A program made the translations under genes and the position numbers. The notes beneath the pieces were generated by a model. That model was given only the letters and a program-made list of their open reading frames with translations, had not been told where the DNA came from and made no database searches. Below are positions 20,483 through 35,776 of a stretch of 64,000 nt of DNA, one piece after another. Location of the stretch: assembly GCA_965277805.1 (NCBI GenBank), contig OZ255842.1:416001-480000 (forward strand), given 5' to 3'. Source of the DNA: Candidatus Lustribacter sp. GTDB lineage: Bacteria; Vulcanimicrobiota; Vulcanimicrobiia; Vulcanimicrobiales; Vulcanimicrobiaceae. How positions within the stretch are numbered: position 1 is the first letter of the stretch; every line of letters begins with the position of its first letter.

Positions 20483-20930
20483 GAAACGGGCAACTGCGTC
20501 CGGAGCGGTAAGGCGAATTGTTTGGACAATGCCCGACCGGCCCAGCAGCCGAGCGAGACACGGGTAACGTCGCCGACACTCTCATTCCACCAAATTCCCC
20601 TCGCTCGGCTGAGACGCTGCGCGAAAGGGCCAGCACCAAATTCAAACCTCGCCCGGTCTCGTCGCCGTCCGCCGGCTGGTCCTCGAAGCTCCGGTCAAAT
20701 CCTGGCCCACTGTCATGGACGACGAGTGTCGGTTCGCTTGCGCGCCAATCAAGCTCGACGCACATCGGCCCGGGCGCATGGCGAGCAACGTTGGAGAGCA
20801 CTTCGCCGACGATCAGTTCTGCGCCGGCAATGTCGTCGTCCGGTTGCGCATACTGGCGGATGAGATGACAGATTTCCCGCCGCAGCGGCCCTGCGTCTTG
20901 ATGACCCATTCTCTCGCGCGTCCAGCACAC
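20448..20930 (-). CDS. Stand-alone RsbW/SpoIIAB-like HATPase (anti-sigma kinase fold); start uncertain
   Basis: ELIVGEVLSNVARHA, VHDSGPGF, GRGL. Confidence 0.75.
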   Translation of the reverse strand: MCWTRERMGHQDAGPLRREICHLIRQYAQPDDDIAGAELIVGEVLSNVARHAPGPMCVELDWRASEPTLVVHDSGPGFDRSFEDQPADGDETGRGLNLVLALSRSVSAERGEFGGMRVSATLPVSRSAAGPVGHCPNNSPYRSGRSCPFPTSIPRSSRGG

Positions 20931-21138
20931 ACGCTCGTCAATACCCCATCAACGGGAAGAGAAACGCACACCCCTCCCCTCGGTGCGCGAGCGTACTGTG
21001 CGGGGCTCGCGGCCTCCGGCCTCTACACCCCGGCCTTTTGTGCTAAACCGCGACTTATGTAAACGGATCGTGAAGGGTCTGAGAAGACTCTGTATTCGGC
21101 CTAGCGCCCGTAAATGGGTGGCCGAACCTATAGACATC

Positions 21139-21345
21139 ATGCATCCTTTCCGAGTCCAGCCCGAAGCCATCGACCGGGTCATCTGCGGTAACTGCGGTCA
21201 CCCCGCGTGGGACCACTGTGTGAGCGAGGGCGCCGAATACGACGCTCACGAGAGCAACGGCGCTTGCCGCCACTTTGCGCTCACCGGCTTCCTCGTCTCG
21301 CCGCAGGTGCTAGTCGATAACCTTCGCGTCTCGCAACTCGCGTAA
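21139..21345 (+). CDS. 68-aa Cys/His micro-protein, putative Zn finger (paralog A)
   Basis: DRVICGNCGHPAWDH...ACRHFALTGF; paralog at 33945 with identical offset from Met. Confidence 0.75.
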   Translation: MHPFRVQPEAIDRVICGNCGHPAWDHCVSEGAEYDAHESNGACRHFALTGFLVSPQVLVDNLRVSQLA

Positions 21346-22491
21346 ACGCGCCTCGCTGTAACCGAGGACGTCTCGCAAAATAGCATCGCTATGCTCGCCG
21401 AGAGCCGGCGGTGCACTTGGCGTCCGCACCGGCGTCGCGGAGAAGTGCATCGGCGAACCAGTCGTGCGGACGCCGCCGGTCTCGTAGATCATCCCGCGTT
21501 CGGCGACTTCCGGCGCTGCCAGCACTTCCTCAACCGTGCGCACGCGACCGGCGGGAATATTCACCGCGGCACACGCGGCGAGCACGTCGTCGCAGGTCCG
21601 TTGCGCGAAGTCTTCGCCGAGGATCGCGATCAGCGTCTCCCGGTTCGCGACGCGCTGCGCGTTGGTCGCGAACCGCTCGTCGCCGGCGAGGTCGGGACGT
21701 TCGACGACGGATTCGCACAGGTCGCGGAACTGCCGGTTGTTCGCGCAGGCCAGCACGAACGGCGCATCGGCCGCCTCGAACGTCTGGTAGGGAACGATGC
21801 TTGCGTGCGCGTTGCCGTAGCGCTTCGCGTTTACGCCGCCGTTGAGCGACGCGCTCGCCACGTTGATCAGTGCCGCGACCGACGCATCGTGCAGCGCGAT
21901 ATCGAGCAGCTGCCCCGTGCCGGTGCGTTCGCGGGCATAGAGCGCCGCGAGGATCGCTTGCGTCGCCGCGTTGCCGGCCAGCAGATCGGAAATCGCAACG
22001 CCGAACTTGTGCGGCGTTCCGTCGACCTCGCCGTTGATCGACATCAAGCCGCTCTCGGCCTGGATCACGAAGTCGTAACCGGCGCGTTCGGCTAAGGCGC
22101 CCGTACGTCCGTAGCCCGAGAGCGAACAGTAGATCAGCCGCGGGTTCAACGCGGCGAGCGAGAGGTAGTCGAGGCCGTAACGCGCCAGGGTTCCGGTGAG
22201 ATAGTTCTCGACCAGGATGTCGGCGCGTTGCGCGAGTTCGCGCACGATCGTTTGTCCGTCTCGGGTGCGGAAGTCGACGGCGAGGCTCGACTTGTTGCGG
22301 TTGACGGCGAGATAATACGTCGCGGTGCCGTGGAAGGCCGGCGGCGTCCAGCTGCGCGTTTCATCGCCGCCGGCGGGATTTTCGATCTTCCAAATCTCGG
22401 CACCCAAATCGCCGAGCGCCATCGTGGACCAGGGGCCCGCGAGAACGCGCGACAGATCGAGCACCCGAATTCCGTCGAGCGGCGGGGCCAT
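21310..22491 (-). CDS. CoA-transferase family III (CaiB/BaiF)
   Basis: LDGIRVLDLSRVLAGP, LGDLGA, NRNKSS, GYD..IQAESGLM, PALGEH. Confidence 0.94.
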   Translation of the reverse strand: MAPPLDGIRVLDLSRVLAGPWSTMALGDLGAEIWKIENPAGGDETRSWTPPAFHGTATYYLAVNRNKSSLAVDFRTRDGQTIVRELAQRADILVENYLTGTLARYGLDYLSLAALNPRLIYCSLSGYGRTGALAERAGYDFVIQAESGLMSINGEVDGTPHKFGVAISDLLAGNAATQAILAALYARERTGTGQLLDIALHDASVAALINVASASLNGGVNAKRYGNAHASIVPYQTFEAADAPFVLACANNRQFRDLCESVVERPDLAGDERFATNAQRVANRETLIAILGEDFAQRTCDDVLAACAAVNIPAGRVRTVEEVLAAPEVAERGMIYETGGVRTTGSPMHFSATPVRTPSAPPALGEHSDAILRDVLGYSEARLRELRDAKVID

Positions 22492-22502
22492 GGCGCTGTG
22501 CG

Positions 22503-23501
22503 CTACGCCGTGCCGGCGACGTGCGCGGCGAGTTTGCGGAACGTGCCCGCGCGAATTGCATCGAGCGCCGGCCCGTCGAACGAGACGTCCTTGAGCACTT
22601 CGCCCGGCGGATCTTCCATCACGCCGAAGGGATAATCGCTGCCGACCATCAGATGATCGAGCCCGATGCGCTTGGCGATCAGCTCGAGGTTCGTCGCATC
22701 GAACGTCAGCGTGTCGGCGTAGAACTTCTGCGCTTCGACCGACGGCCGCGTCGGCAACATCGCTTGCCACGCTTTCTGCGTGCTCCAGAAGCGGTCGAGC
22801 CGTGGCAGCATCCACATCAGCGTGCCTCCGCCGTGGGCCAGCACGATCTTCATGTCGGGAAAGCGCGTGAGGTAACCGCCGAGCAGCAGCTTCGCCGAGA
22901 TCACGCCGGTTTCGGTCGGGTAGGCGCCGGCGGCGCTGAAGCCGAGGATGTTGCGGTGGCGCTCGAAGCCCGGCGCCGTTTCCGGATGGATGAAGATCAG
23001 TGCGCGCAACGCGTTGCACTGCTCCCAGAACGGGACCAGCGCGGGATCGTCGAGTTCGCGGCCGGCCGCGGTCGTGCCGATCTCGACGCCGAGCAAGCCG
23101 AGGTCGTTGCGTAAGTAGCTCAGCTCGGCGCACGCCGCGTCGACGTCTTGCAACGGAATGGCGCCGAGGCCCGAAAAGCGGTCGGGGCGTTTGCGCACGA
23201 CTTCGGCGATACCGTCATTGTGCAGACGTGCCCATGCGCGTCCGTCTTCAGATGAGGACGCGTACGAGTTCGTGACCGGAATCGGCGAGATGACTTGGCG
23301 CGCGATGTTGCGCTCGTCCATATCGTTGATGCGGCGTTGCGCGTCCCAGCAGCGTTCGTCGATCGTCCGGTAGTGCTTGCCGTTTTCGTAGAGCTGCCCG
23401 CAGGTCGGCGTTTCGATTTCGAGTTTGGTCGTGCCGGCCGCGCGATACGTTGCGGCGCTATCCGGAATGTAGTGCGTGTGGAAGTCGACGATTTGTTCCA
23501 T
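22503..23501 (-). CDS. Amidohydrolase_2 protein, ACMSD-like decarboxylase
   Basis: DFHTH, CWD...RI.DMD, GVEIGT, FIHP, AHGGG, GSDYPF. Confidence 0.85.
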   Translation of the reverse strand: MEQIVDFHTHYIPDSAATYRAAGTTKLEIETPTCGQLYENGKHYRTIDERCWDAQRRINDMDERNIARQVISPIPVTNSYASSSEDGRAWARLHNDGIAEVVRKRPDRFSGLGAIPLQDVDAACAELSYLRNDLGLLGVEIGTTAAGRELDDPALVPFWEQCNALRALIFIHPETAPGFERHRNILGFSAAGAYPTETGVISAKLLLGGYLTRFPDMKIVLAHGGGTLMWMLPRLDRFWSTQKAWQAMLPTRPSVEAQKFYADTLTFDATNLELIAKRIGLDHLMVGSDYPFGVMEDPPGEVLKDVSFDGPALDAIRAGTFRKLAAHVAGTA

Positions 23502-23560
23502 CTCGGTCAGCCTTCGACGGGACCGGAAGGTTGCGCCTCCAGCGGACAGAAGCGCTCCGC

Positions 23561-24505
23561 ATGATACGACGTTCTTCTGCGTTAACGCTCATCGCCGGCG
23601 GCATTCTCGCCGGCATTCGTCCGGCGAGCGCGCAGACGGCGCCGGCGCCGGTGCGAATCGGCGCGATGGCGATCGACGCGTTTGGTGAAGCGTACTTCGG
23701 CAACGATGCCGGAATTTTCGTCAGCAACGGCATCGCGCCGCAGATCACGACGCTCACCAACGGCGCCGCGATCATGTCGGCCGTGATCGGCGGCGATCTC
23801 GACGTCGGCATGGCCAACACGGTCAACGTCGCCGGCGCGATCGCGCGCGGCATTCCCGTCCAGATGATCGCGCCCGCTTCGCTGTATTCGAAAAAGGACG
23901 CGAATCCGAACCTGATGATCGCGAAGACGTCGCCGATCAAGTCGCCGAAGGATCTGACCGGCGCAACGATCGCCGTCTCGGCACTCGGCGACTTCAACCA
24001 GTTGAGCCTCTTGGCATGGCTAGATACGAACAAAGTGCCGCGCGATAGCGTGCACTTCGTCGAGATGAAGTTCGGCGAGATGGGAGCCGCGGTAGCGCGT
24101 GGGACGGTGCAAGCCGCGATCATCACCGAACCCGCCAAGACCGATGCGATCCTGGCCGGCCAAGTGCGCGACTTCGCCGACACGTACATCGCGGTCGCGC
24201 CGGAGTTCGCGACGATCGTGTGGTTCACGACGAAGGGCTGGCTGCAGAAGAACCCCGACACGGCGAAAAAGCTCGTTGCCGGGATTTACGCGACAGCGCG
24301 CTGGGCGAACGCCCACACCGATCTATCGGCGCCGATGCTGGCGAAAGCCGCGAAGATGGACCCGGCCGTCGTTGCGGGCATGCGCCGCTTGTACTTCGCG
24401 ACCGCCAACGATCCGAAATATATCGAAGGCACGCTCGCGCTCGGATCGCGCTACGGCATGTTGCCGCGTCCGGTCACGGTTGCGGAATACACCGCCGGAA
24501 TATGA
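23561..24505 (+). CDS. SsuA/THI5-type substrate-binding protein
   Basis: MIRR leader; NGAAIM, KDLTGATIAV, FVEM.F, WFTT. Confidence 0.82.
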   Translation: MIRRSSALTLIAGGILAGIRPASAQTAPAPVRIGAMAIDAFGEAYFGNDAGIFVSNGIAPQITTLTNGAAIMSAVIGGDLDVGMANTVNVAGAIARGIPVQMIAPASLYSKKDANPNLMIAKTSPIKSPKDLTGATIAVSALGDFNQLSLLAWLDTNKVPRDSVHFVEMKFGEMGAAVARGTVQAAIITEPAKTDAILAGQVRDFADTYIAVAPEFATIVWFTTKGWLQKNPDTAKKLVAGIYATARWANAHTDLSAPMLAKAAKMDPAVVAGMRRLYFATANDPKYIEGTLALGSRYGMLPRPVTVAEYTAGI

Positions 24506-25662
24506 GATCGATTCGCGCCCTGACGCTGCTCGCCGCCGTTTCGCTGCTGGGCGCTTCCCCGGCTAGCGGAACGCCGATCACCATCGACGTGATCCTGCCG
24601 CTGACCGGCGGACAGGCGTTCTCGGGCGCGATCCACGCGCAGACGATCGGCGTGTACGAACGCTACGTCAACGCGAACGGCGGGATCAACGGCCGCCCGG
24701 TACACTTCGACATTCACGACGACAAGTCGAGTCCGCTCGTCGACGTCCAACTGACGAACGCGATCGTCGCAAACAAGACGCCCGTGATGCTGGGCTCATC
24801 GTATCAGGCGGGGTGTCTCGCGGAGTTGCCGATCCTCGGAACGAGCACGGTCGCCTATTGTCTCTCGCCCGGCCTCAACCCGAAACAGCCGAACATGTTC
24901 TCGGCAGCCGTCTCGACGAATTACATCGTGCCGGCAATCTACAAATTCATGCGCGATCGCGGCTACAAGAAGATCGCGGTCATCACCTCGATCGACGCCA
25001 CCGGCCAGAGCCACGACGTGCTCAGCCAAGTCACGATGGACCGCCCCGACTTCAAGAACATGAGCATCGTCGACTACGAGCATTTCTCGCCGGCCGATCT
25101 GAGCGTTAGCGCCCAGATCGCGCGCATGAAGAGCGCGAATCCGCAGGGTGTCGTCGTCGTGGCCACCGGGAACGCGTTCGCCACCGTGCTGCGCAGCATG
25201 CACGATGCGGGCCTCGACATCCCCGTGATCACGAGCGCGGTCAACATGAACGAGGACGAGCTCAAGCAGTACCAGCCGTTCTTGCCCAAAGAGATCGTCT
25301 TCAATAGCACGCTCTTCTACGCGCGCCCGCAGGACCGCAAAGGCTCCGTCCGTGCCGCCGTTGATGAGTTCTACAGCGCGTATAAAACCGCCGGCATCAA
25401 CCCATCACCCGAAGCAACCTCATGGGACCCCGCCAAAATCGTCGTCGCCGCGCTAAAAGCGCTCGGACCAAATACGACCGGCGAACAAGTCGCCGCGTAC
25501 ATCGCGAACCTGCACGACTTCGCCGGCTCGAGCGGCCTCTACGATTTCCGCACCGGCGACCACCACGGCCTCAGCGACGCCGACATCGTGTGGGTCAAAT
25601 ACCAACCCGACACCCCAACCAAGTACGCCCCCGTCTCCAAACCGGGCGGCGCCCCGCTCTAG
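24502..25662 (+). CDS. LivJ/LivK-type substrate-binding protein
   Basis: Signal peptide; PLTG, NANGGINGRP, DD.S.P; ATGA overlap. Confidence 0.85.
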   Translation: MRSIRALTLLAAVSLLGASPASGTPITIDVILPLTGGQAFSGAIHAQTIGVYERYVNANGGINGRPVHFDIHDDKSSPLVDVQLTNAIVANKTPVMLGSSYQAGCLAELPILGTSTVAYCLSPGLNPKQPNMFSAAVSTNYIVPAIYKFMRDRGYKKIAVITSIDATGQSHDVLSQVTMDRPDFKNMSIVDYEHFSPADLSVSAQIARMKSANPQGVVVVATGNAFATVLRSMHDAGLDIPVITSAVNMNEDELKQYQPFLPKEIVFNSTLFYARPQDRKGSVRAAVDEFYSAYKTAGINPSPEATSWDPAKIVVAALKALGPNTTGEQVAAYIANLHDFAGSSGLYDFRTGDHHGLSDADIVWVKYQPDTPTKYAPVSKPGGAPL

Positions 25663-25676
25663 TCATCGGCAGCACA

Positions 25677-26456
25677 TTGTTGCCACTTCGTCGCATCGAC
25701 CTCGACCGGCGTTCCGTTGAGAATTGGAACGAATATCCGTTCGCGGTTCCGGCGATTTCGGCGTTTACGCCAATCGACGTCCGCAGCCCGGTATTATGCT
25801 TCGTGGGAGAAAATGGGAGCGGCAAGTCGACGTTGCTCGAAGCCATCGCGCTGTCTTGCGGGTTCGGCCGGGAAGGCGGAACGAAGAACTTCAGCTTCTC
25901 GACCCAAAACGAGCAATCGACGGACGTCAACCCCGACGAGGCCGCGATCGATCGGCTGGCAGACGCGCTAGCCTTATCGTGGCGAAAACGCCAACGCGAT
26001 GGGTTCTTTTTGCGAGCTGAGAGTTTTTATAACGTCGTATCCTACCTCAATCGAGATCCGGCCAATCTGAGAAATTACGGTTGGAAGTCGCTTCACGCTC
26101 GCTCGCACGGTGAATCATTCCTGACCCTCATGCTCGAGCGGTTCTCGCCAAACGGCTTGTTCTTGCTCGACGAGCCGGAAGCGGCGGTGTCGCCGGCCCG
26201 GCAGCTCGCGCTCCTGCGCCGAATGCACGATTTGCTGCACGCGGGTCGCGACACGCAGTTCATCGTCGCCACCCACTCCCCGATTATCTTGGCATATCCC
26301 GGTGCTCAGATTTGCGAATTCTCAAGCGCCGGCATTAAAGAAGTTTCGTATCGCGACACGGATGCGTATATCATAACGCGCCGCTTTCTCGAAAATCCCG
26401 ATCGCGGTCTCGCGGAGGTCCTTAGCGACTTAACTGATGAGGTCGATTTCGAATAG
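25677..26456 (+). CDS. ABC-like AAA ATPase (COG3910-like); TTG start inferred
   Basis: YPFAVP, GENGSGKSTLLEA, FFLRAE, SHGESF, LLDEPE, IVATHSP. Confidence 0.85.
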   Translation: MLPLRRIDLDRRSVENWNEYPFAVPAISAFTPIDVRSPVLCFVGENGSGKSTLLEAIALSCGFGREGGTKNFSFSTQNEQSTDVNPDEAAIDRLADALALSWRKRQRDGFFLRAESFYNVVSYLNRDPANLRNYGWKSLHARSHGESFLTLMLERFSPNGLFLLDEPEAAVSPARQLALLRRMHDLLHAGRDTQFIVATHSPIILAYPGAQICEFSSAGIKEVSYRDTDAYIITRRFLENPDRGLAEVLSDLTDEVDFE

Positions 26457-26485
26457 TGACGCGGAGGCCACAATTGCTGGAGTCA

Positions 26486-26980
26486 TTAGTGTATAAAGCG
26501 GACGATCGTGTCGCGCCGCGCCGGGCCGGTACGCAGCCATGGGAGATCTTTGCCGATCGCAATCAGCGCTTGGGCGAAGCCCGGGAGATCTGCTAGCCCG
26601 ACGTCGTTGAACGTTTTCACCTGATCGCCGCAGCGCACACGCACAAGGACCCTCGGAGCGGTCATGTGGAGGCTCGATGCAGCCGGTATGATGAGCGGAA
26701 TACCGCTGCGTTCGCATAGCTTCGCGTGCTCGACTTCAGCCTCGACCGCGACGAAGTCGGCCTTTGCCACGTAGTGGCCGTCGTATCCCCGCAGCCGGCC
26801 GTCGTACGCGGCGCCCCCGTCACGGGTGAACCTGAGCGTATAGCCCGGGGAATTCGCGCCGATCACCATTCGAGCGGTCGTGACCACCACATCGTCTGCC
26901 TGCGGCACCGTAGCCGTAGCGGGAGCTGCGATCAGGGCGAATGCGATGACCAGCGCGGAAGCCAAGCGAGCACTGTGCAT
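26486..26980 (-). CDS. Hypothetical secreted protein
   Basis: Signal peptide (ALVIAFALIAAPATA); two Cys; TATTAT 7 nt upstream of ATG. Confidence 0.6.
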   Translation of the reverse strand: MHSARLASALVIAFALIAAPATATVPQADDVVVTTARMVIGANSPGYTLRFTRDGGAAYDGRLRGYDGHYVAKADFVAVEAEVEHAKLCERSGIPLIIPAASSLHMTAPRVLVRVRCGDQVKTFNDVGLADLPGFAQALIAIGKDLPWLRTGPARRDTIVRFIH

Positions 26981-27072
26981 GGCCAGGATAATATCATGCC
27001 GCCTCAGGCACTTCATAAAAATTCGATGAGACCGCTGCCGGAGGCGGCTGATTTTCTGCCGGGGGCCTCGCT

Positions 27073-27279
27073 CTAGCCCTTGGTCGCCGGCACCATCGTT
27101 TTGCACTTGGTGAATTTGCCCTTGGCATCGCGGCAGCGCTTCGGCGCCGGCGTGACGACGGCGGTCGGGCACTTGATGAATTTGCCCTTCGCATCGCGGC
27201 ACGTCTTGGCCGAAGCGATCCCCGAGCACAGGGTTACCGCGAAAAGAAACCCGAGCACCGACGTAAGTAAACGCGCCAT
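27073..27279 (-). CDS. 68-aa secreted basic peptide with a duplicated CRDAKGKFxKC repeat
   Basis: GGAGG SD; signal peptide ending ASA; repeat visible in both DNA and protein. Confidence 0.8.
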   Translation of the reverse strand: MARLLTSVLGFLFAVTLCSGIASAKTCRDAKGKFIKCPTAVVTPAPKRCRDAKGKFTKCKTMVPATKG

Positions 27280-27456
27280 ACAAGACCTCCATCGAAAAAA
27301 AACGTGGGAGCGAGCGCTTCTCCGGTCGGCTTTAGCTTGCCTAGCGGATGCCGAACGCGGCCGCGAAGGATTGCGTGAGGTCGCCGGATGCGCGTGTAAC
27401 GCGAATGTAATTTTGCTGAGCCGCGGCTGTAAGGCGCAATTCGCTACGGTCGTAGC

Positions 27457-27861
27457 ATGAAAAACATCACAACGTCCACCCACCTCGCCGCAGCCGCCCT
27501 CATCGCCGGCTCCGCCCTGCTAGCAACGAGCGCGCCGGCCGACGCTCAGACTCCTGGGGTCCCATCCGGCGTGGCCTGCTCCGCGCAAAACAGGAACGCC
27601 CAACCGACGTATCTCGAAACACCCGAATGGCCGGCAGTCGCTCAGTTAATGAATCTTACCGGTACGACGTACGTGCGCGTGCAGATCGACCCAACCGGCT
27701 CACCCTCGCAACCAGAGGTTGCGCGAACGTCCGGCGCGGGAGTACTCGACCGGGCAGCGATCGATGCGGTCTTGAAGAGCACCTTTAGGCCGGAAGTCGA
27801 CGATTGCGTTCCCGTCAGCGGCAAGTACATAATCATCGTAGACTTTCCGTCGACCCAATGA
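27457..27861 (+). CDS. Secreted TonB C-terminal domain protein
   Basis: Signal peptide ending ADA; PEWP, GTTYVRVQID..G, SGAGVLDRAAIDAV, F.P. Confidence 0.75.
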   Translation: MKNITTSTHLAAAALIAGSALLATSAPADAQTPGVPSGVACSAQNRNAQPTYLETPEWPAVAQLMNLTGTTYVRVQIDPTGSPSQPEVARTSGAGVLDRAAIDAVLKSTFRPEVDDCVPVSGKYIIIVDFPSTQ

Positions 27862-27942
27862 GCGCTCGACAGTATACCGAGCAATCAATGGGATGCCCGT
27901 CGTTGTTAAAACATAAGCCGACGCTCGCGAGAACTATTTAGC

Positions 27943-30450
27943 ATGCATGTCTGGCCGCGCGCTCGAGTCAGGTTCGTTACGCTCGTGATCGCGTTGACGG
28001 TCGTTGCGATCGCCATCAACGTTCCGGGCTTCGTCATGCACGCACGGCACGTCTATGGAATCAACGGAATAGTTCTGAGCGGTAATCGGGTCGTCGGCCT
28101 CTTGAAGCGCGGCGGAGCGCCGAACCAATTCAGGGTCGGGGACGTCGTCCTGCTGGACCAGGTGCCGATCGGCGATCGCTATGAAATGGGCCAGTTCTCG
28201 CGCCTGGGTCCAATCGCGAAGACGGTACGCATACCGGTGTTGAGAAACGGCAGGCCGGTAACCGTTCTTGAAAACTTCGTCTATGAACCGCGGCTCCTTG
28301 GCGATGCGCCCCTTGACGTTACGATCGACCTGATCGAGAAAACGTCCATTCTGTTGCTGGCATTGGTGGGCGCCGCACTCCTGCTGTTGTGCCCGTCACC
28401 CGTTTCGTGGACGTTTTTCTTCTACACCGCCGGCCTAGCCGTCTGGGACGGGCCGATGTTCTGGACGTTTCTGCCGGCGATTCCGTACATGATCGTCAGC
28501 TGGGTCGCCATCATCTACGCGTCCCTTGCGCCGATCATGTTCGCCCTCTTCGCACTGCGCCTGACAGATATCCTCAAGCCGGCCGTGCGCCTCCTGGCAG
28601 AGCGTATCGTCGTCGTGGCCGGGCTCGCATACCTGATCTTTCCAGCGATCGAAACGGTGCTGGTCTTTACGAAGCCGGTCGGCGAATTCTACTATACCGT
28701 TTCATTTGCGTTTGTAATTGCGCTGCTGGCCGGTGCCACAGCAGTCTTTATCGTGGCGGCGTTTCGCACCGCACGCACCGGCACAGGCGTGCCCGTAGCA
28801 GCATCGCTCTGCTTCGCCGGCGCGGGCCTGACGCTACTCCTGCACCTCTTCACGGGACTTTTTCTCAACTTCGATAGTGCGCTGCTCAATACGATGCTGC
28901 CGGTATTCGAGGCATCGTTGTACTTCCCACTCTCACTAGCGGGAATATTCATTATCGTCCGTTCCCGAACGATCGACATCAAGCTCACGATTTCGCGAAC
29001 CGCAGCGTTTGCATTTCTCAGCTACGCGGTCATCGCAGTCATTGTCGCGGCGAACTGGACATTTGCTCGGCACCTCGCCGACTATTCGTTCTTGATCCCG
29101 CTGCAGCTCATTTTTGCCGTGTGGCTCGGTTACCGGTTGAGCGGCTTGGGGGACTTGTCGCGTACGTTCGCGCTGGCAACATCGGAAGCGACCGCGGCAC
29201 GTTTAAGCGGTGACCTCACCGCCGAGCAGCAGCTTCTCACCAAAGGATTAGCCGCGGCCGAACTCACTCGCAAGGCAACTCTCGTCGCGGAAGTGCATGC
29301 TCGCATGGCCTTCAGCGCTTGGCTCGACGGCGACGAGAACCGGCGCGATACCCATCTGCAGGCGCTTGAAGCGGCAATCGGCGAGACTCGCTCCCGCGGA
29401 TTGCGCTTCTACTTGGCTGCGGCACGCAACCAACTGGATGAGATCGAACCATCCGATTCAGATCTGGCGGAATGGATTGCCCGCGGTTACCTCATCGCAA
29501 GTGCCAAAGCGAAGGACGCCGCCGAGTCCTTGCTGCTGGCACGCGAAGCGAAGCATGCTGCAGAACAAAGCGGTCAGCATTTCTTGACGGCTCTCGCACT
29601 CATCGCCAACGCCGAACTAAATCCCTCGGCGAGCGTCGAAAAGATGCGCGAACGCGCAGAAGAACTCGCGCGCGAGTTGGCATCCGAACCATTCCGAAAC
29701 CTCGTCCGAGCGTACTTCGATGGATCGGACAACCTCGGCATGCTGGAACCGTTCGTCCGCAGGTTCAAACCATCGGTCCACGCGCCGCCTGTGCTCGAAG
29801 TAGCATTTTCTCGCGCGGAGGTTCGCGTCTCGGACGTACCAGTCGCGTTACGCGAAGCGGAGCGCGCTCTGCTGTTCGCGATCGCGTACCGGCCCGGGCC
29901 GGTTTCGAGCGACGCACTCGCCGATGAGCTTTGGCCGGACCGGGACGGCGACGTAGCGAAAAATGCACTGCGCGTGTGCATGCACCGCCTACGGCGTGCC
30001 CTCGGGCCGGAAGAATGTGTTTTGCGCAGGGATAACGGATACGCGTTGCGCACCGACGCGTCCGTCGATCTTCATGAGATGCCGAAAGTACAGCGTTCCA
30101 TCACCTTCCCCCTAACACCGAGCCAGCGATCCCGCATGGCTGCCGTATTCGAAACGCTCCAAGCAACGGAAGATCTTCGTGCTGCGGCAGGCAGCTGGTT
30201 TTCCCGCTACGCCTCCGACATTCTGACACGTTACAACGCCTATGCGCTCACGCTCTGCCGGGACGCTTTGCGTCGCGGTGCACCTGATGAAGCGCTCGGA
30301 TTCGTGCGGTCCGTCCTTAAAAGCGACCCGAGCGATGCCGAGGCCTGCGAGCTCCGAAATACCGCGAATGATATGATCCGGCAACGCGGCGCTTCGAGGC
30401 GCGGCGACCCGGTCACCCGACCAAGTCGAATTCGAACAATGATGCGATGA
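27943..30450 (+). CDS. Membrane protein: PDZ-like loop, multiple TM helices, helical region, C-terminal SARP-type winged helix/BTAD-like domain
   Basis: FRVGDVV...VLRNG; about 8-10 hydrophobic segments; LADELWPD...NALRVCMHRLRRALG...GYAL. Confidence 0.75.
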   Translation: MHVWPRARVRFVTLVIALTVVAIAINVPGFVMHARHVYGINGIVLSGNRVVGLLKRGGAPNQFRVGDVVLLDQVPIGDRYEMGQFSRLGPIAKTVRIPVLRNGRPVTVLENFVYEPRLLGDAPLDVTIDLIEKTSILLLALVGAALLLLCPSPVSWTFFFYTAGLAVWDGPMFWTFLPAIPYMIVSWVAIIYASLAPIMFALFALRLTDILKPAVRLLAERIVVVAGLAYLIFPAIETVLVFTKPVGEFYYTVSFAFVIALLAGATAVFIVAAFRTARTGTGVPVAASLCFAGAGLTLLLHLFTGLFLNFDSALLNTMLPVFEASLYFPLSLAGIFIIVRSRTIDIKLTISRTAAFAFLSYAVIAVIVAANWTFARHLADYSFLIPLQLIFAVWLGYRLSGLGDLSRTFALATSEATAARLSGDLTAEQQLLTKGLAAAELTRKATLVAEVHARMAFSAWLDGDENRRDTHLQALEAAIGETRSRGLRFYLAAARNQLDEIEPSDSDLAEWIARGYLIASAKAKDAAESLLLAREAKHAAEQSGQHFLTALALIANAELNPSASVEKMRERAEELARELASEPFRNLVRAYFDGSDNLGMLEPFVRRFKPSVHAPPVLEVAFSRAEVRVSDVPVALREAERALLFAIAYRPGPVSSDALADELWPDRDGDVAKNALRVCMHRLRRALGPEECVLRRDNGYALRTDASVDLHEMPKVQRSITFPLTPSQRSRMAAVFETLQATEDLRAAAGSWFSRYASDILTRYNAYALTLCRDALRRGAPDEALGFVRSVLKSDPSDAEACELRNTANDMIRQRGASRRGDPVTRPSRIRTMMR

Positions 30451-30952
30451 TGGCGGCCATTCGCGGGTCGACCGACCACAGGCGAGAGCGCGTGGCGCGC
30501 GGCCAAAGCGAGTGCGGATCGTTGACCTCGACGAACGCGCGGACGCACTCGGCGAAGTATTCATCGCACGCGCTGGCAGCATAGGGCGTAACGAATGCGG
30601 TGGCTCCCGCGAAGGCGCGGCGGATGCGCGGGTCGACCCCGCTGAGATACACGCCGCCGCCCAACGCGCAGTCGAGCGCGTGTGCGAACTCGTGCGCAAT
30701 CGTCATTGGGCTCAAGCTGCGCAGGTAGATCGTCCGTTCCTCGACCACGAACAAGCCCGCCGGTGGGATCGGCCAGCCGTCAACGCCCGCAACGATGCGT
30801 CGTAAGACCGGAGAGCGATCGCCGAAGCGTTCGCCTTCACCGAGTACGGTAATGCGGATGCCGGCGCGTTCGGCAACGGCGATCGCGCCCGGGCCGAACC
30901 GCTGGAGTACTGCCTCGACGGCGGCGGCATGCGGGGGCGCGGCTTCGATCAT
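30413..30952 (-). CDS. Zn metallopeptidase of ATLF (anthrax lethal factor catalytic)/MtfA-like fold
   Basis: HEFAHALD, YA....EYFAE. Confidence 0.75.
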   Translation of the reverse strand: MIEAAPPHAAAVEAVLQRFGPGAIAVAERAGIRITVLGEGERFGDRSPVLRRIVAGVDGWPIPPAGLFVVEERTIYLRSLSPMTIAHEFAHALDCALGGGVYLSGVDPRIRRAFAGATAFVTPYAASACDEYFAECVRAFVEVNDPHSLWPRATRSRLWSVDPRMAAIIASLFEFDLVG

Positions 30953-31086
30953 CCGGCCTACGATACGCGCCTGCCATTACGCTACGATGTCCGAACTATT
31001 GCCTAGTCACCCGTCAGTTGCGAGCGTATTGCGCTCCCGCGTGCGCGATGATCGACGTACTAGGTCCGCGGCGGAGGCGCACGTTG

Positions 31087-31845
31087 TCAGCGTACCGTCA
31101 TTCCGCCATCGACACGATAGTTTGCGCCGGTTATGAACTTGCCGCGATCCGACGCGAGTAACGCAACGACTTCAGCGACGTCCTCGGTGCCGCCGAGACG
31201 GGCCAGCGGAATATTGCGAACCCAGTCATCGGAAGAAAATCCTGGAGTCGTCTTGGCAAACTCGGCGGACCCCGGCGTCGCGATGACGCCGGGCGACACG
31301 ACGTTCACACGGATCCCGCTCGGCGCAAGTTCCGTCGCGAGTGTGCGGGAGTAGTACTCGAGCGCAGCCTTTGCGGCGCCATAGTGCACAGAGGGCGCAA
31401 ACGGGATCGTCGCTGCCGCCGAAGAGATGTTTACGACGGCTGCAGCCTTCGACGCACGAAGCGCCGGGAGAAGGGCGTTCGTAAGGCGGATTGCGGCGAA
31501 AAGGTTGAGCGCGAAGCTCTCATTCCAGGCCGTCTCGGGTATCGTCCACGATCCACCGAGGAACGCGCCTCCACCGCCCGCATTGTTCACGAGAATGTCG
31601 AGACCGCCAACCGCCGCAAGCGCCTGCTTCGCGATTGCGTCCACGCCCTCGATCGTCGTGACATCGCCGGAAACGAACGTCGCCCCCGCGGGTGTTTCGT
31701 CGTTACGCGAACGCGCGGCGACGACGACTTTTGCGCCGGCATCAAGCAGGCGCTGCGTGATGGCGGCGCCGATGCCTTTGGTGCCGCCGGTGACGAGTGC
31801 GCGGCGACCGATGAGTTCTTTCGAGAGATCAAGTTTATTTGCCAT
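31087..31845 (-). CDS. Short-chain dehydrogenase/reductase
   Basis: TGGTKGIG, LVNNAG, YGAAK, IRVNVVSPG, VDGG. Confidence 0.94.
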   Translation of the reverse strand: MANKLDLSKELIGRRALVTGGTKGIGAAITQRLLDAGAKVVVAARSRNDETPAGATFVSGDVTTIEGVDAIAKQALAAVGGLDILVNNAGGGGAFLGGSWTIPETAWNESFALNLFAAIRLTNALLPALRASKAAAVVNISSAAATIPFAPSVHYGAAKAALEYYSRTLATELAPSGIRVNVVSPGVIATPGSAEFAKTTPGFSSDDWVRNIPLARLGGTEDVAEVVALLASDRGKFITGANYRVDGGMTVR

Positions 31846-31890
31846 GGGATATTCCTACGAAGATGCGTCCACCTAGACGATTGTAGATTC

Positions 31891-31909
31891 ACGACACGCG
31901 TCGTATAAT
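31891..31909. promoter_or_regulatory. Palindrome ACGAC-ACGC-GTCGT abutting TATAAT; candidate TetR operator and -10 box
   Basis: Between divergent SDR and TetR genes. Confidence 0.5.
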
Positions 31910-31961
31910 CGAGCTATGTCGCATATGATACGGCCGTCCGAACCGCCGGTCAACCAACAAA

Positions 31962-31978
31962 CTGGCACGAATGTTGCT
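31962..31978 (+). promoter_or_regulatory. Sigma-54 (-24/-12) promoter consensus
   Basis: CTGGCACGAATGTTGCT matches YTGGCACGNNNNTTGCW exactly, about 23 nt before the TetR start. Confidence 0.6.
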
Positions 31979-32001
31979 TATCTGGCGAAACTGAGAGATT
32001 G

Positions 32002-32559
32002 ATGCTTAGCGGTGCACCACGCTCGTCTCGCGTCGATCCGCGGGTAACCCGGACGCGCAAGCTCATCCGGGACGCGCTGACGGCGCTTATCGGTGAAAAG
32101 AGTTTCGAAGCAATCACCGTGCAGGACATCGCAGAACGCGCTACGATCAATCGCGCGACGTTCTATGCCCACTATACGGATAAGTTCGCTCTGCTTGATG
32201 CTTTGGTTCGGGAAGACTTCACGGCCCGTCTAGCCGAGGGTGATCCGCTGAAGATTCGAAGCGTTCAGCCGATGTTGCTGGCGGTGGGCAGCAACGTCTT
32301 CGCCTACGTCGCGTCGAAGAAGAAATGTCGAATCGACCGCGATTTTGAGTCGCAGGTTCAACGAACTATGGACACGGCGCTAACCGGCTTCTTGTCACCC
32401 GCCTTCGGGCAACGCACGGCGATGATGATCGCGTCGGCGTTCGCCGCCGCCGCAATGAATTGGCGCCATCAGTCGCCGAAATCGCCGACGGAACCAATCG
32501 TAGCGGATATCGTTCAGATTCTCGTGGACGGCGTGAAAACGCGTCGGCTCTCGGTTTAG
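32002..32559 (+). CDS. TetR family regulator
   Basis: DPRVTRTRKLIRDA, ITVQDIAERATINRATFYAHY. Confidence 0.93.
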   Translation: MLSGAPRSSRVDPRVTRTRKLIRDALTALIGEKSFEAITVQDIAERATINRATFYAHYTDKFALLDALVREDFTARLAEGDPLKIRSVQPMLLAVGSNVFAYVASKKKCRIDRDFESQVQRTMDTALTGFLSPAFGQRTAMMIASAFAAAAMNWRHQSPKSPTEPIVADIVQILVDGVKTRRLSV

Positions 32560-32624
32560 ATGCGGGCGGTCGCTGCTCTGAAGAAGAACGGTGAGTCAAT
32601 CGCTGATAGCGGCGATTGGGGCGG

Positions 32625-32648
32625 CCCTTCGACAAGCTCAGGGTGACA
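32625..32648 (+). repeat. REP-like element CCCTTCGACAAGCTCAGGGTGACA
   Basis: Near-identical to 42705-42727; its last A is the A of the MFS ATG. Confidence 0.7.
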
Positions 32649-33856
32649 TGAGAGAGAAGCCACGGAATCTGCTGTTGTTCTTCATTGCTTTTCTCACGGG
32701 CGATGGGGCGGCGCAGATTCAGCAAGTTGCGGTCGCCTGGACGGTTTACAGCGTCCACCATCGTGCGTTCGATCTCGGTCTTGTCGGCATCGTGTCGTTT
32801 CTGCCGTCGTTGCTGCTGGTGTTCGTCGCGGGTCAGGCCGCCGATCGCTACGACCGCAAGGGGATCATCATCGCGGCGGCCGTGGTCGAGGCGCTCACCT
32901 CGCTCGTCCTCGCGGGCCTCGTGTTCGCTGGCGTCCGCGATCTCGCGATCATGCTGGGCGTGCTGTTCGTGCTCGGTATCGGGCGTGCGTTCGGCTCGCC
33001 GGCAGAGTCGACCGTGCTGATCAGTATGGTGCCGACCGAGGAATATCTCAGCGTTCAGGCGCGCTACAACTCGTTTCGCGAGGTGGTCGGGATGGCGGGC
33101 CCCGTCATCGGCGGCGCGCTAGTGGCGTTCTCCGACATCACCGCGTTCGTCGGCGCGGCCGTGCTCATGCTGATCTCGGTTGCCGCGTTTGCGTTCGTTC
33201 ACGTTCGCGCAGTCGTGCGCGAGCCGGGCAAGGAACTCGATCCGGGCAAGGCGCTCGACGGGCTGCGCTTCATCGCTTCGCGGCCGATCGTGCTCGGCGC
33301 GATCTCGCTCGATCTGTTCGCCGTGCTCTTCGGCGGCGCGAGCGCGCTGTTGCCGATTTTCGCCGATCAGGTGCTGCACGTCGGCGCCTTCGGCTTCGGC
33401 ATGCTGCGCGCTGCGGGCGGCATCGGCGCGTTCGCGATGGCGGTGTTACTCTCGCATCGTTCGCCCAGCCGGCACGTCGGCCGCACGCTGCTGCTCAACG
33501 TCGCCGCCTACGGCCTCGCGATGCTCGTCTTCGCGTACTCGCGCGACCTCTGGCTCTCGATCGCGGCGCTGGCCATTGGGGGCGCGTTCGACATGGTCAG
33601 CGTCGTCATTCGCCGGGGACTGATCGGCTTGAACACACCCGATGCGATGCGGGGCCGCGTCTATTCGGTCGAGGGCGTCTTCATCGGCGGCTCGTATCAA
33701 CTCGGCGCCTTCGAATCTGGGACGCTCGCGCAGTTCATCGGGCCGGTCGCGTCGGTCGCGGTCGGCGGGGCAGCGACGCTAGCGATCGTCGCTATCTGGG
33801 CCGGACTGTTCCCGGCATTGCGCCGCAGCGACCGGCTGGCCGACGAGTCATTGTAA
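32648..33856 (+). CDS. MFS transporter (DHA3/EntS-like)
   Basis: About 12 TM; GQAADRYDRK, SLDLFAVLFGG, TPDAMRGRV, LGAFESG. Confidence 0.9.
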   Translation: MREKPRNLLLFFIAFLTGDGAAQIQQVAVAWTVYSVHHRAFDLGLVGIVSFLPSLLLVFVAGQAADRYDRKGIIIAAAVVEALTSLVLAGLVFAGVRDLAIMLGVLFVLGIGRAFGSPAESTVLISMVPTEEYLSVQARYNSFREVVGMAGPVIGGALVAFSDITAFVGAAVLMLISVAAFAFVHVRAVVREPGKELDPGKALDGLRFIASRPIVLGAISLDLFAVLFGGASALLPIFADQVLHVGAFGFGMLRAAGGIGAFAMAVLLSHRSPSRHVGRTLLLNVAAYGLAMLVFAYSRDLWLSIAALAIGGAFDMVSVVIRRGLIGLNTPDAMRGRVYSVEGVFIGGSYQLGAFESGTLAQFIGPVASVAVGGAATLAIVAIWAGLFPALRRSDRLADESL

Positions 33857-33944
33857 CGGCTCCGCGAAGCCTTAGCGAAGCTTCCGCATACCTACGACTA
33901 AAGTCGCGTTTTTGGCTGTTCCGGCGGCCGATGCTGTATCTATC

Positions 33945-34148
33945 ATGTATCTTCCGCCTCCCGACCGCGGCCGCGTCGACCGCGTCACGTGCCAACATTG
34001 CGGCCATCCCGTGTGGGATCACGAGGCCGGCGACGTGTGTACCGAGTGCGACCGCGGCGACGCCTCGAGCGCCTGCGGCCTCTTCTCGCTCTACGGCTTC
34101 GCGCAATTGCCTGCGACCGGAATCGAAGACCGCCCATTTCAACACTAG
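33945..34148 (+). CDS. 67-aa Cys/His micro-protein, putative Zn finger (paralog B)
   Basis: DRVTCQHCGHPVWDH...CTEC...ACGLFSLYGF. Confidence 0.75.
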   Translation: MYLPPPDRGRVDRVTCQHCGHPVWDHEAGDVCTECDRGDASSACGLFSLYGFAQLPATGIEDRPFQH

Positions 34149-34213
34149 CGCCAATCTGTGAAGCGGAACGGAAAGGCGTTCCGCCAGATCGGCGAGCATA
34201 TTATCTTCGTCGC

Positions 34214-35776
34214 ATGGATGCCGTATCGGCTCTTCTTCGGGCCGCGATTCGCATCGCGGGTGCCTCTGCCGCGATCGTCGCTTACGACGACGATCACCGG
34301 CCCGTTGCCTTCACTGGGTGCAGTCAGGGCGCCGCTGCGCTAGCATTGCGCGACGGTAGCGGCGCGTACATCGACTGCCGTACGCCGGTCACCCCGATGA
34401 CGCTCGTGCTGCTCGAACCCGCGCGCACAACCGCCGGCGATGCCGCGTTAATGGCGCTGGCGAACGAACTCGGGCACGCGGTGCTCGAAAGCCAATCCGT
34501 GTTCGACGGTGACTTGGCTGCTCTCTCGGCGAGCATCGAAACGCTTGCCGATCCGGTGGCCGTCTTCCATCCGCCGGTACCGGGGGAAGAAGTCGCGCGC
34601 TTCGCGTGCGTCAACGGCGCCTTCGAGCGGCTCTTCGGCTACGCGTCGCGCGATCTCGCCGGGCTGACGGAAGATCTGCTCTACATGGAGTCGACCTCCA
34701 TGGAAAACGTGATGCACATGCGCGACCGGCTGGCCGCCGGCGATCCGGTGCGCGGGATCCTCGAGTTGCAAACGCGCGAGAGCCTGCCGCTCTGGATCGA
34801 GATGACCTCGCGCGTCGCTTACGATTCGACCGAGCATCCCACGTACTATGTGTCGACGCTGCGCGACATCTCGGCGCGCAAAGAGTTTGAGGCTGCCGTT
34901 GCGGCGGAGAAGCTGCGGCTGAGCGTCACGCTCAAGGCGATCGGCGACGCCGTGATCACGGCCTTACCGGACGGCCGCATCGATTTCATCAACGCCGCGG
35001 CGCAGCGGCTGCTCAACGTTGCCTTCTCCGAGGCCTACGGCATGCCGTTGCGCTCGATCGTCGACTTGCGTGACGAGCAGGACGCGCCGTGCGAGATCCA
35101 TCTCGATCCGTCCGGCGAGGTGCGGGGCGAAGGCTTGCTCTACGGGCCCGAACGCAACACGCAGATCGCGTTCGTCAGCTCGCCCATGTGCGGCGTGCTC
35201 AATCCGCGCGTGCCGTTCGGCTACGTGATCGTGCTGCGCGACGTCACCGCGCAAGTGCGCCTGACGCGGCGTCTCGCCTACGAGGCGAGTCACGATTCGC
35301 TCACGCGGCTGCCCAACCGCCGCCGCTTCGAAGAGATGATCGAGGGCGCGCTGGTCAGTGCACGGCACAGCACCGCCGTGCACACGGTTGCGTTCATCGA
35401 CCTCGATCGTTTCAAACAAGTCAACGACTCGTTCGGCCACGAGACCGGCGATCGATTGCTGCGCGACGTCGCACACCGCATGTCGCTCAACGTGCGCGGC
35501 AACGATATTCTCGCGCGCCTCGGCGGCGATGAGTTCGCGATGTTGCTGCACGAATGCACGCCCGCTCAGGCCGAACGCGTCGTCGAGAAGATTCGCCAAT
35601 CGGTGGAATCGCTGCCGGTAGTCTACAACGGCAAGACGATCGTTCTCAGCGCGAGCATTGGGCTAGCGGCGCTCGATCACCGGTCCGTCAGCGCGGCCGC
35701 GGTGATGGCCGAAGCCGACAAGGCTTGCTACGAAGCGAAGGCGCGCAGCCACGGAGCGCCCGCTCCGGAACCTTAA
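34214..35776 (+). CDS. PAS-PAS diguanylate cyclase
   Basis: Two PAS-like domains; HDSLT.LPNR, DLDRFKQVNDSFGH, intact ARLGGDEF. Confidence 0.92.
   Translation: MDAVSALLRAAIRIAGASAAIVAYDDDHRPVAFTGCSQGAAALALRDGSGAYIDCRTPVTPMTLVLLEPARTTAGDAALMALANELGHAVLESQSVFDGDLAALSASIETLADPVAVFHPPVPGEEVARFACVNGAFERLFGYASRDLAGLTEDLLYMESTSMENVMHMRDRLAAGDPVRGILELQTRESLPLWIEMTSRVAYDSTEHPTYYVSTLRDISARKEFEAAVAAEKLRLSVTLKAIGDAVITALPDGRIDFINAAAQRLLNVAFSEAYGMPLRSIVDLRDEQDAPCEIHLDPSGEVRGEGLLYGPERNTQIAFVSSPMCGVLNPRVPFGYVIVLRDVTAQVRLTRRLAYEASHDSLTRLPNRRRFEEMIEGALVSARHSTAVHTVAFIDLDRFKQVNDSFGHETGDRLLRDVAHRMSLNVRGNDILARLGGDEFAMLLHECTPAQAERVVEKIRQSVESLPVVYNGKTIVLSASIGLAALDHRSVSAAAVMAEADKACYEAKARSHGAPAPEP

Follow-up and report, generated by a model that had tools for sequence, protein, structure and literature searches.

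Small zinc-finger proteins of the CPxCG-related class are, as characterised in the relevant part of PMC2253796, shorter than 100 amino acids (aa), carry a CxxCG knuckle together with a second Cys/His pattern located 7-40 residues away, and are mostly annotated as hypothetical proteins. One of them, the small CPxCG-type zinc-finger protein Brz of Halobacterium, is presented there as being encoded directly upstream of the gene that it regulates (PMC2253796). At the level of regulatory DNA, the operators of OmpR/SARP-type winged-helix activators consist, according to the portion of PMC10936776 dealing with them, of direct repeats 11 bp (one helical turn) apart, lying upstream of the promoter or overlapping it. 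The present analysis concerns two genes, A and B, in a 64,000-nucleotide (nt) stretch of the genome of Candidatus Lustribacter sp. (contig OZ255842.1, positions 416,001 to 480,000), referred to below as the window. The products of A and B are cytoplasmic acidic micro-proteins of ca. 67 aa, and they make up a sequence family that is new among the small proteins of zinc-ribbon type, themselves a known kind. The family is narrow and rare, undescribed and, in everything searched, limited to one genus of Eremiobacterota, a soil phylum without cultured members. The genome containing the window is designated G000, and its closest relative G003.

Gene A (21139..21345, plus strand) codes for 68 aa and gene B (33945..34148, plus strand) for 67 aa; both are delimited on the grounds of the open frame, paralogy, the GC content of codon positions and the ratio of nonsynonymous to synonymous substitution rates (dN/dS). 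As the first-pass annotation of this stretch had stated, the two are paralogs and share the motif [IV]DRVxCxxCGHPxWDH, followed after 15 (A) or 16 (B) residues by ACxxFxLxGF, the first Cys being residue 16 in both proteins. In a pairwise BLASTP comparison 20 of 52 residues are identical (E 5e-12). B, a B-type member, has CxxCG plus CxxC and a C-terminal motif reading CGLFSLYGF, and A, an A-type member, has no second CxxC. The two are real coding genes, as the same annotation held, and are under purifying selection, as shown by codon GC, dN/dS and the invariant Cys residues described below. GC at codon positions 1/2/3 amounts to 0.70/0.43/0.77 in A and 0.69/0.51/0.78 in B, resembling that of flanking known genes (0.69/0.47/0.82 in the diguanylate cyclase gene following B), and the rival frames overlapping A and B have a third-position GC (GC3) of 0.47-0.68. 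The alignments show in-frame indels between A and B. Calculated according to Nei-Gojobori, dN/dS ranges from 0.07 to 0.46 over the 15 B-type ortholog pairs; for the 36 A-type pairs it is 0.17-0.61 in 33, saturated in two, and 1.20, from only five differences, in the remaining one, so that by this measure the B-type is under the stronger constraint.

The ATG of both genes is taken as the true start because in relatives (loci L005 and L007) an in-frame stop is present 2-6 codons 5' of it. A longer N-terminus formed by the upstream in-frame residues ADALxIM was rejected, in view of these stops, of a 1-nt shift in the spacing to the ATG in L007 and of AT-rich third positions. No Shine-Dalgarno (SD) sequence precedes the ATG of A or of B, which tells little because only about 20% of the crude open reading frame (ORF) starts in this genome carry an SD-like word (589 of 2962, compared with 8% at a control offset). 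The 16S rRNA of the genome ends in the canonical CCUCC tail.

The first-pass annotation did not recognise the family, and this judgement stands, with no match to a characterised family in Pfam, NCBIfam, PHROGs, PADLOC or PDB sequences. A has no match at E<=1 and the best match of B is DZR_2, at 13.2 bits with a cut-off of 27; the best NCBIfam score is 13.7 bits with a cut-off of 117, and no zinc-ribbon, rubredoxin or HypA model of these two collections reaches its curated cut-off. PADLOC gave no match for A or B, and PHROGs yielded, for four of the 40 family members, a weak match to a single unnamed family (best E 0.0048). The profile built from the 40 sequences found in PDB sequences, at best E 0.021, one knuckle of the Trx2-type N-terminal finger 3p2a, other weak resemblances being to RPB12 and S27ae, i.e., to generic zinc knuckles. 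The best ESM Atlas scores, 0.89-0.90, fell on unnamed clusters and gave nothing usable. Nor did a description of the family turn up in the open-access papers searched on small zinc finger/CPxCG proteins and on Eremiobacterota diguanylate cyclases.

A word-index search of 5.8 billion clusters returned eight relatives of A and five of B, all of 67-75 aa. The profile search that the first-pass annotation had proposed was carried out exhaustively on 1.84 billion representatives and gave 25 proteins at E<=1e-3, of which 23 are family members of 59-91 aa and the other two are weak matches to longer zinc-ribbon proteins; on this basis, no fused or longer forms of the family exist among them. The ten family clusters that were looked up have one to three members each, with uninformative names save for member P0028, labelled by one database source as a 'HypA/HybF Zn finger'. 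In its own genome the family has two copies, A and B, the next match having E 0.12. The counts of genomes rest on species-representative samples, absence meaning that a gene was not found among those searched. Among the species genomes of the genus, the family occurs in seven of eight, the one without it being G005, and A-type genes are present in 7/8 congeners. At the rank of taxonomic family, eight of 348 genomes match at E<=1e-4, seven belonging to the genus and one, G283, being weak (E 7e-5), which makes one weak match among 340 genomes outside the genus. A phylum sample yielded four matching genomes out of 401, the same weak G283 match and genus members. In a tree of the 40 sequences the B-type (ending in CGLF[AS]LYGF) constitutes one clade with support 96/82, the A-type comprising the rest.

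The G283 match, which has neither the Trp nor the C-terminal motif, comes from another genus and is the sole weak match outside the genus of A and B; it is an ORF of 76 aa (L033:1399-1629) with the pattern CxxCGH…H…CxxCD…C, and the ORF located just 5' of it contains three repeats of a Cys-x2-Cys…HAER..AW motif.

Both genes are preceded by a shared cis-element, absent from the first-pass annotation, which is a non-coding block of ca. 45 nt, situated at about -95 to -55 and surpassing much of the ORF in conservation. The element of gene A (21057..21100, plus strand; genome positions 437057-437100) consists of TGTAA, two GNNAAG repeats 11 nt apart and T..G, and that of gene B (33850..33893, plus strand; 449850-449893) includes in its TGTAA the stop codon of the upstream MFS gene; both were located by nhmmer and by exact pattern. 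When positions -100 to +12 of eight A-type and six B-type genes are aligned (14 upstream regions), 22 columns are invariant and 15 of these lie within the element: T20 G21 T22 A23 A24, G32 A35 A36 G37, G43 A46 A47 G48, T51 and G54. An invariant G thus recurs every 11 nt (columns 21, 32, 43 and 54), and the self-identity of the element is 0.51 at offset 11 versus 0.16-0.31 at all other offsets of 4-18, for A-type and B-type genes alike. With the nhmmer profile, the sites of A and B are the only two in the 5.5-Mb genome, and a profile made from A-type elements of other genomes places the B element of this genome as the second-best site (E 0.019). The pattern of invariant bases has 12 exact matches in 7/8 congeners, all of them 5' of micro-ORFs, the decayed B of G006 included, and none in G005; with one mismatch allowed it has one site elsewhere, compared with two for a reversed control pattern. 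The layout of the cassette is a ~45-nt element, a variable spacer of ~45 nt, an ATG without an SD sequence and the conserved core.

A DNA-level site is favoured because RNAalifold predicts no pairs in the element and Rfam gives no matches; on the same grounds the reading of the upstream element as an RNA leader was discarded. Scans for sigma-70-type promoters and intrinsic terminators around both genes found no sites. The sharing of the element makes it fairly probable that A and B are co-regulated by one DNA-binding factor, the simplest candidates for which would be a winged-helix activator or an alternative sigma factor. TGTAAC, the ~17 nt after it and CGAAG may also be an ECF-type promoter, a reading as possible as that of a winged-helix operator. 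Another motif, GCCGA-N8-10-ATCATG, was tried as a regulon marker and dropped as unspecific, a crude genome scan giving 45 matches against ~7 expected on base composition, mostly in unrelated contexts.

Conservation of residues was counted over the 40 aligned family sequences. Of the motif given in the first-pass annotation, the Cys core holds throughout, C16, C19 and C43/44 being invariant (40/40), and the His of CGHP proved less conserved (32/40). W24 is present in 39 sequences, H26 in 37, and G20, F47 and F52 in 38 each. The second CxxC of B (C32-x2-C35), which begins 12 residues after the first and in place of which A has GAEY, is complete in 24 of the 40; all three sequences devoid of H26 keep it complete, and none of the 40 is without both. 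The two features complement each other across sequences, which is why a single metal site is proposed: the residue pattern makes it likely that one metal ion, most likely Zn(II), is held in a knuckle or ribbon by C16, C19, C43/44 and either H26 or a Cys of the second knuckle. The pI of all 40 proteins is 4.2-6.9 and their median net charge -5, with no candidate for a basic surface among them. Because all are acidic, binding of proteins is preferred to binding of nucleic acids, a prediction to which we would give an even chance.

The DNA similarity between A and B spans 21117-21291 and 33923-34100, respectively, and the conserved core comprises residues ~10-52, which is also where the similarity of the cassette DNA stops. 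Downstream of the core, the last 12 codons of A (21310-21345, 36 nt) overlap the 3' end of a convergent gene for a family III CoA-transferase (21310..22530, minus strand; Pfam E 1.4e-117). The tail PQVLVDNLRVSQLA is kept in A and in its counterparts from G003 and G004, where the overlap is the same, and also in five database relatives whose genomic context is unseen. Unrelated tails are found in the copies of G006, G002, G001 and L023, which have no overlap with the CoA-transferase gene, and likewise in that of G007, with an overlap of 4 nt. The C-terminal tail of A is probably constrained by the antisense C-terminus of the CoA-transferase.

The gene that follows B (34214..35776, plus strand) codes for a PAS-PAS-GGDEF diguanylate cyclase whose N-terminal ~96 aa have no assigned domain. 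Its GGDEF domain matches PF00990 at E 3.3e-44, and PAS_9, PAS_4, PAS and PAS_8 each match two stretches; the translation contains RLGGDEF and RGND (RxxD), motifs from which cyclase activity is predicted. Its ATG (34214) is separated by 65 nt from the stop codon of B, as the first-pass annotation had described, and no terminator-like site was found between the two. The same order, B followed on the same strand by the cyclase gene after 65-71 nt, is present at 7/7 loci with intact B (those of G000, G002, G003 and G004, and L027, L028 and L029), and it holds in G002 though the upstream neighbour there is an MscS-cNMP gene and not the MFS gene. Cyclase orthologs occur in 7/8 congeners. In G003 the reading frame of the ortholog (loci L012 and L020) is broken in two near residue 95 and a second time near residue 400, and the CoA-transferase of that genome is similarly split, which points to frameshift or long-read assembly errors and not to biology.

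The spacer between B and the cyclase gene (34149..34213, plus strand) is conserved in eight loci and contains a hairpin/palindrome around CGTTCC (~34163-34184) and CATATTAT (34197-34204), the latter 9 nt 5' of the cyclase ATG. Five relatives' loci show the palindrome, CGTTC-N5-GAACG, without any deviation, and in G000 and G003 one base of it is changed; CATAYTAT stands 9 nt 5' of the ATG in six loci with intact B. In G001, which has no B, the cyclase-proximal part of the spacer is kept, but both the palindrome and CATAYTAT are altered. Within 34163-34204 a GC-rich hairpin, GCGGAACG-GAAAGG-CGTTCCGC, overlaps the palindrome of CGTTC-N5-GAACG type. The palindrome and CATATTAT look like an operator plus a -10 box of a near-leaderless cyclase mRNA, and the cyclase gene is plausibly transcribable on its own.

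On the other side of A, 208 bp away and divergent from it, lies an ORF (20448..20930, minus strand) for an RsbW/SpoIIAB-like HATPase_c_2 protein (PF13581, E 3.1e-12, 47.1 bits with a cut-off of 27.4), as had also been described; with 40 bits against a cut-off of 210 it does not reach the family-level NCBIfam model RsbA_anti_sig. This neighbourhood is not conserved. Orthologs of the HATPase with >90% identity exist only in G000 and G003 (2/8), other genomes having only paralogs of <=42%, and at the other six informative loci the A-type gene stands beside genes of other kinds. The commonest neighbour of A-type genes is the CoA-transferase gene, located within 3 kb at seven of eight informative loci; the others are a Rieske/LigXa-like oxygenase (G004 and L023), a periplasmic binding protein and an SDR (G006), a Tat-signal protein of unknown family together with the CoA-transferase (G002), glyoxalases (G001) and an isopropylmalate-synthase-like gene (G007). 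A therefore has no fixed signalling partner, as inferred from these loci. Of the statement in the first-pass annotation that each gene stands beside a signalling gene, the half concerning B and the cyclase is upheld at all seven loci with intact B, and the half concerning A is limited to G000 and G003; the partner-switching role suggested for A has nothing behind it beyond this one non-conserved neighbour. A test of neighbour enrichment, also proposed there, is uninformative because the homologs whose context is known all belong to a single genus and lie in a single syntenic island. The absence of micro-genes from G005 is uninformative too because the whole accessory island is missing there, G005 being also devoid of orthologs of the cyclase N-terminus, the CoA-transferase and the MFS gene. 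Altogether, the interpretation offered by that annotation is half supported.

The explanation that we consider best, with an even chance of being correct as a whole, is that A and B are micro-protein cassettes with a metal site, under one shared factor, B being accessory to the cyclase. Each gene moves as a cassette made of the dedicated 11-nt periodic element, spacer, ATG and core; the product would contain a single metal-binding knuckle or ribbon in which C16, C19 and C43/44 are obligatory and a fourth position is taken by H26 or by a Cys of the optional second CxxC; these acidic micro-proteins would bind protein partners; and the B subfamily would serve the PAS-PAS-GGDEF cyclase, whose gene starts 65-71 nt downstream, as an accessory modulator dependent on metal or redox state. 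The part of this proposal according to which B is a dispensable accessory modulator of the cyclase is tentative, falling short of an even chance. A more specific version, in which a genus-specific cassette with a periodic operator/promoter drives the synthesis of a Cys3His zinc/redox sensor and B docks on cyclase residues 1-96 to tune the level of cyclic di-GMP (c-di-GMP), is quite unlikely.

Several points weigh against this explanation. In G001 B is cleanly deleted, from the MFS stop codon into the spacer, in G007 a deletion takes B together with cyclase residues 1-96, and in G006 B is degenerate, with W24, C35, C44 and the aromatic motif lost; in all three the cyclase gene is open. The B-cyclase partnership put forward in the first-pass annotation is thus seen in the adjacency at 7/7 loci and is not obligate. 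Co-transcription with B is not required because the cyclase has its own conserved upstream sequence, and the adjacency may be an inherited position, all context coming from one genus and one syntenic accessory island; the link between B and the cyclase is positional only. As regards the shared element, the converse profile, made from five near-identical B-type rows, did not recover the A element at E<=1, and the local 835-aa Trans_reg_C membrane protein (27943-30450) was rejected as the conserved factor, its orthologs being present only in G000 and G003. AlphaFold2 models from the 40-row alignments are of too low confidence for a comparison of folds (mean pLDDT 59.3 for A and 55.5 for B); a metal-binding Cys/His core is plausible from the sequence pattern, and the role of Zn adaptor or redox sensor suggested in the first-pass annotation is putative.

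According to the strongest rival, which we hold to be rather unlikely, A and B are lineage-specific structural zinc micro-proteins unlinked to signalling, acting elsewhere, e.g., as a metal buffer, as a chaperone or with an unlinked partner, their neighbourhoods being accidents of one accessory catabolic island. It agrees with the neighbours of A-type genes, different in nearly every genome, with the three losses of B in which the cyclase was retained, with the joint absence from G005 of the micro-genes and of the CoA-transferase, MFS and cyclase orthologs, and with the cyclase having a conserved upstream region of its own. What it leaves unaccounted for is the behaviour of B: the intact gene is never found away from the cyclase (7/7 loci), even where the upstream neighbour has changed to the MscS-cNMP gene in G002, and B-type dN/dS (0.07-0.46) is tighter than that of the A-type.

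The cassette explanation, with B as an accessory of the cyclase, has also to be compared with a redox or iron-sulfur sensor, in which three Cys and one His would bind a labile [2Fe-2S] cluster or serve as a thiol switch. CDGSH/mitoNEET-type proteins hold their labile 2Fe-2S cluster by just such a set of three Cys and one His, the family has three invariant Cys and a near-invariant His, and the neighbour of B is a cyclase with PAS domains, which often sense redox state. This reading is nevertheless improbable, for no Fe-S family of Pfam or NCBIfam matches at E<=1, the spacing of CxxCG and, 12 residues on, CxxC is that of a zinc ribbon, and the only weak matches are to Zn proteins.

Still less probable is a small zinc-finger transcription regulator resembling Brz, binding the repeats upstream of its own gene and/or the cyclase promoter. 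The position of Halobacterium brz directly upstream of the gene that it regulates, as given in the part of PMC2253796 mentioned above, would suit it, and the element and ORF are duplicated together, deleted together and found nowhere else. Such tight linkage of element and gene is, however, expected of an ordinary promoter as well; the 40 members, all acidic with a median charge of -5, offer no basic surface, and the element of G006 is kept with 0 pattern mismatches though the ORF there is degenerate. That A and B are not proteins at all but a DNA/RNA element, a leader peptide (upstream ORF) or a precursor of a ribosomally synthesised and post-translationally modified peptide (RiPP) is hardly credible: the missing SD sequence, the upstream DNA conserved above parts of the ORF and the variable C-terminal tail would fit, but the SD-like motif occurs at only ~20% of crude starts, so that its absence is common, GC3 is of coding type with dN/dS <1, invariant Cys and in-frame indels, A has no downstream same-strand gene (it converges on that for the CoA-transferase), RNAalifold and Rfam give no consensus structure and no match, and no conserved modifying enzyme adjoins the genes.

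The preferred explanation remains that of metal-binding micro-protein cassettes with B accessory to the cyclase. What is new in any case is a family of micro-proteins, validated by its evolution, for which a set of candidate ligands is defined, and a private cis-element, the 11-nt periodic upstream element being the most interesting addition. Should B modulate the cyclase, c-di-GMP synthesis would be controlled by a separate micro-protein, as is rarely seen, and should B dock on residues 1-96 as in the specific version above, it would represent a new class of diguanylate cyclase regulators, micro-proteins acting in trans; otherwise A and B would still be a useful test case of misleading neighbourhood inference within one genus, as with the HATPase. 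Small proteins are systematically under-annotated, and Eremiobacterota have no cultured model for genetics. The finding has a limited practical reach, as the family is taxonomically narrow and also rare, its clusters holding one to three sequences.

Several other features of the region deserve mention. In G002 (L019:6296-7024) and in the metagenome contig L023 (5291-6004) a protein of ~240 aa is encoded on the same strand 3' of the A-type gene; the two are 78% identical, have a twin-arginine-like signal (…SRRSFVIGA…) and no Pfam family, and nothing of the kind stands beside A. RsbW-like kinase domains are expanded in the genus: a 160-aa HATPase_c_2 query finds 11 places in G000 and 2-12 per congener, many of them in frames of 500-1400 aa. 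In the 835-aa protein encoded at 27943-30450 (plus strand) the N-terminal half is a membrane part of several helices and residues 633-700 are a Trans_reg_C domain of OmpR/PhoB type, i.e., it is a membrane-anchored one-component regulator; its G003 copy has an internal TAG. The segment containing it, a TonB_C gene and the ORFs 25698-26456 and 26486-27292 is found only in G000 and, partly, in G003. The ORF at 25698-26456 (plus strand) codes for an AAA_21/AAA_15 ATPase matching PADLOC models of AriA, mad3 and PtuA type (best E 1e-17) and possibly belongs to a defence system, as a component or as what is left of one. An ORF of 179 aa at 30413-30952 (minus strand) has an HExxH-type motif (…AHEFAHALD…) and no match in Pfam, PADLOC or PDB sequences; in those relatives' loci that extend as far as this ORF (G002, G003 and G004) and in two metagenome loci it shows 86-99% conservation and keeps its synteny with the MFS/B/cyclase block, and its product is possibly a small metallopeptidase-like protein. 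The TetR gene at 31999-32559 was not detected beside the MFS gene in the G004 locus.

Set against the systems described at the outset, A (68 aa), B (67 aa) and the 23 family representatives (59-91 aa) lie within the <100 aa limit of the CPxCG class, and C16-x2-C19-G20 is present in A and B, G20 being found in 38 of 40 sequences. B has in addition the second pair C32-x2-C35, 12 residues after C19, which A lacks (GAEY), so that by motif B qualifies as a small CPxCG-related zinc-finger protein and A strictly does not, the class being one of pattern and not of homology. In a crude scan of the genome for this definition together with coding-type GC, only five small ORFs were found, B among them; of the other four, two would, read by eye, be ribosomal zinc proteins and one ferredoxin-like, and one is something else. 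The family adds to the class pattern an invariant third Cys in AC..F.L.GF, a W-x-H motif and acidic charge, and it has no detectable sequence relationship to Brz or other CPxCG proteins (PDB 8q5b, E 1). B resembles Brz in lying directly 5' of the gene that it would affect and in sharing the orientation of that gene; Brz acts on transcription, which is unlikely for A and B. Generic zinc ribbons (3p2a, RPB12, S27ae, L37 and the HypA site) share with the family the local CxxCG(H) knuckle and the 12-residue CxxC spacing, at best E 0.021 and for one knuckle only, and have no counterpart of the C-terminal motif of A and B. The zinc-binding anti-sigma (ZAS) motif is H-x3-C-x2-C within an anti-sigma helical domain; in A and B the order is C-x2-C-x6-H, and no anti-sigma model of Pfam or NCBIfam matches them. 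The upstream element resembles OmpR/SARP operators in its 11-nt periodic direct repeats, and differs from them in that its last repeat is not followed at 8 bp by a -10 element; nor was a cognate regulator with matching conservation detected. Finally, DgcZ is a diguanylate cyclase under zinc control through a helical CZB domain in the same polypeptide; metal-dependent control of a GGDEF protein is the idea that it would share with B, which differs in being a separate, dispensable protein of 67 aa and a putative modulator of its cyclase.

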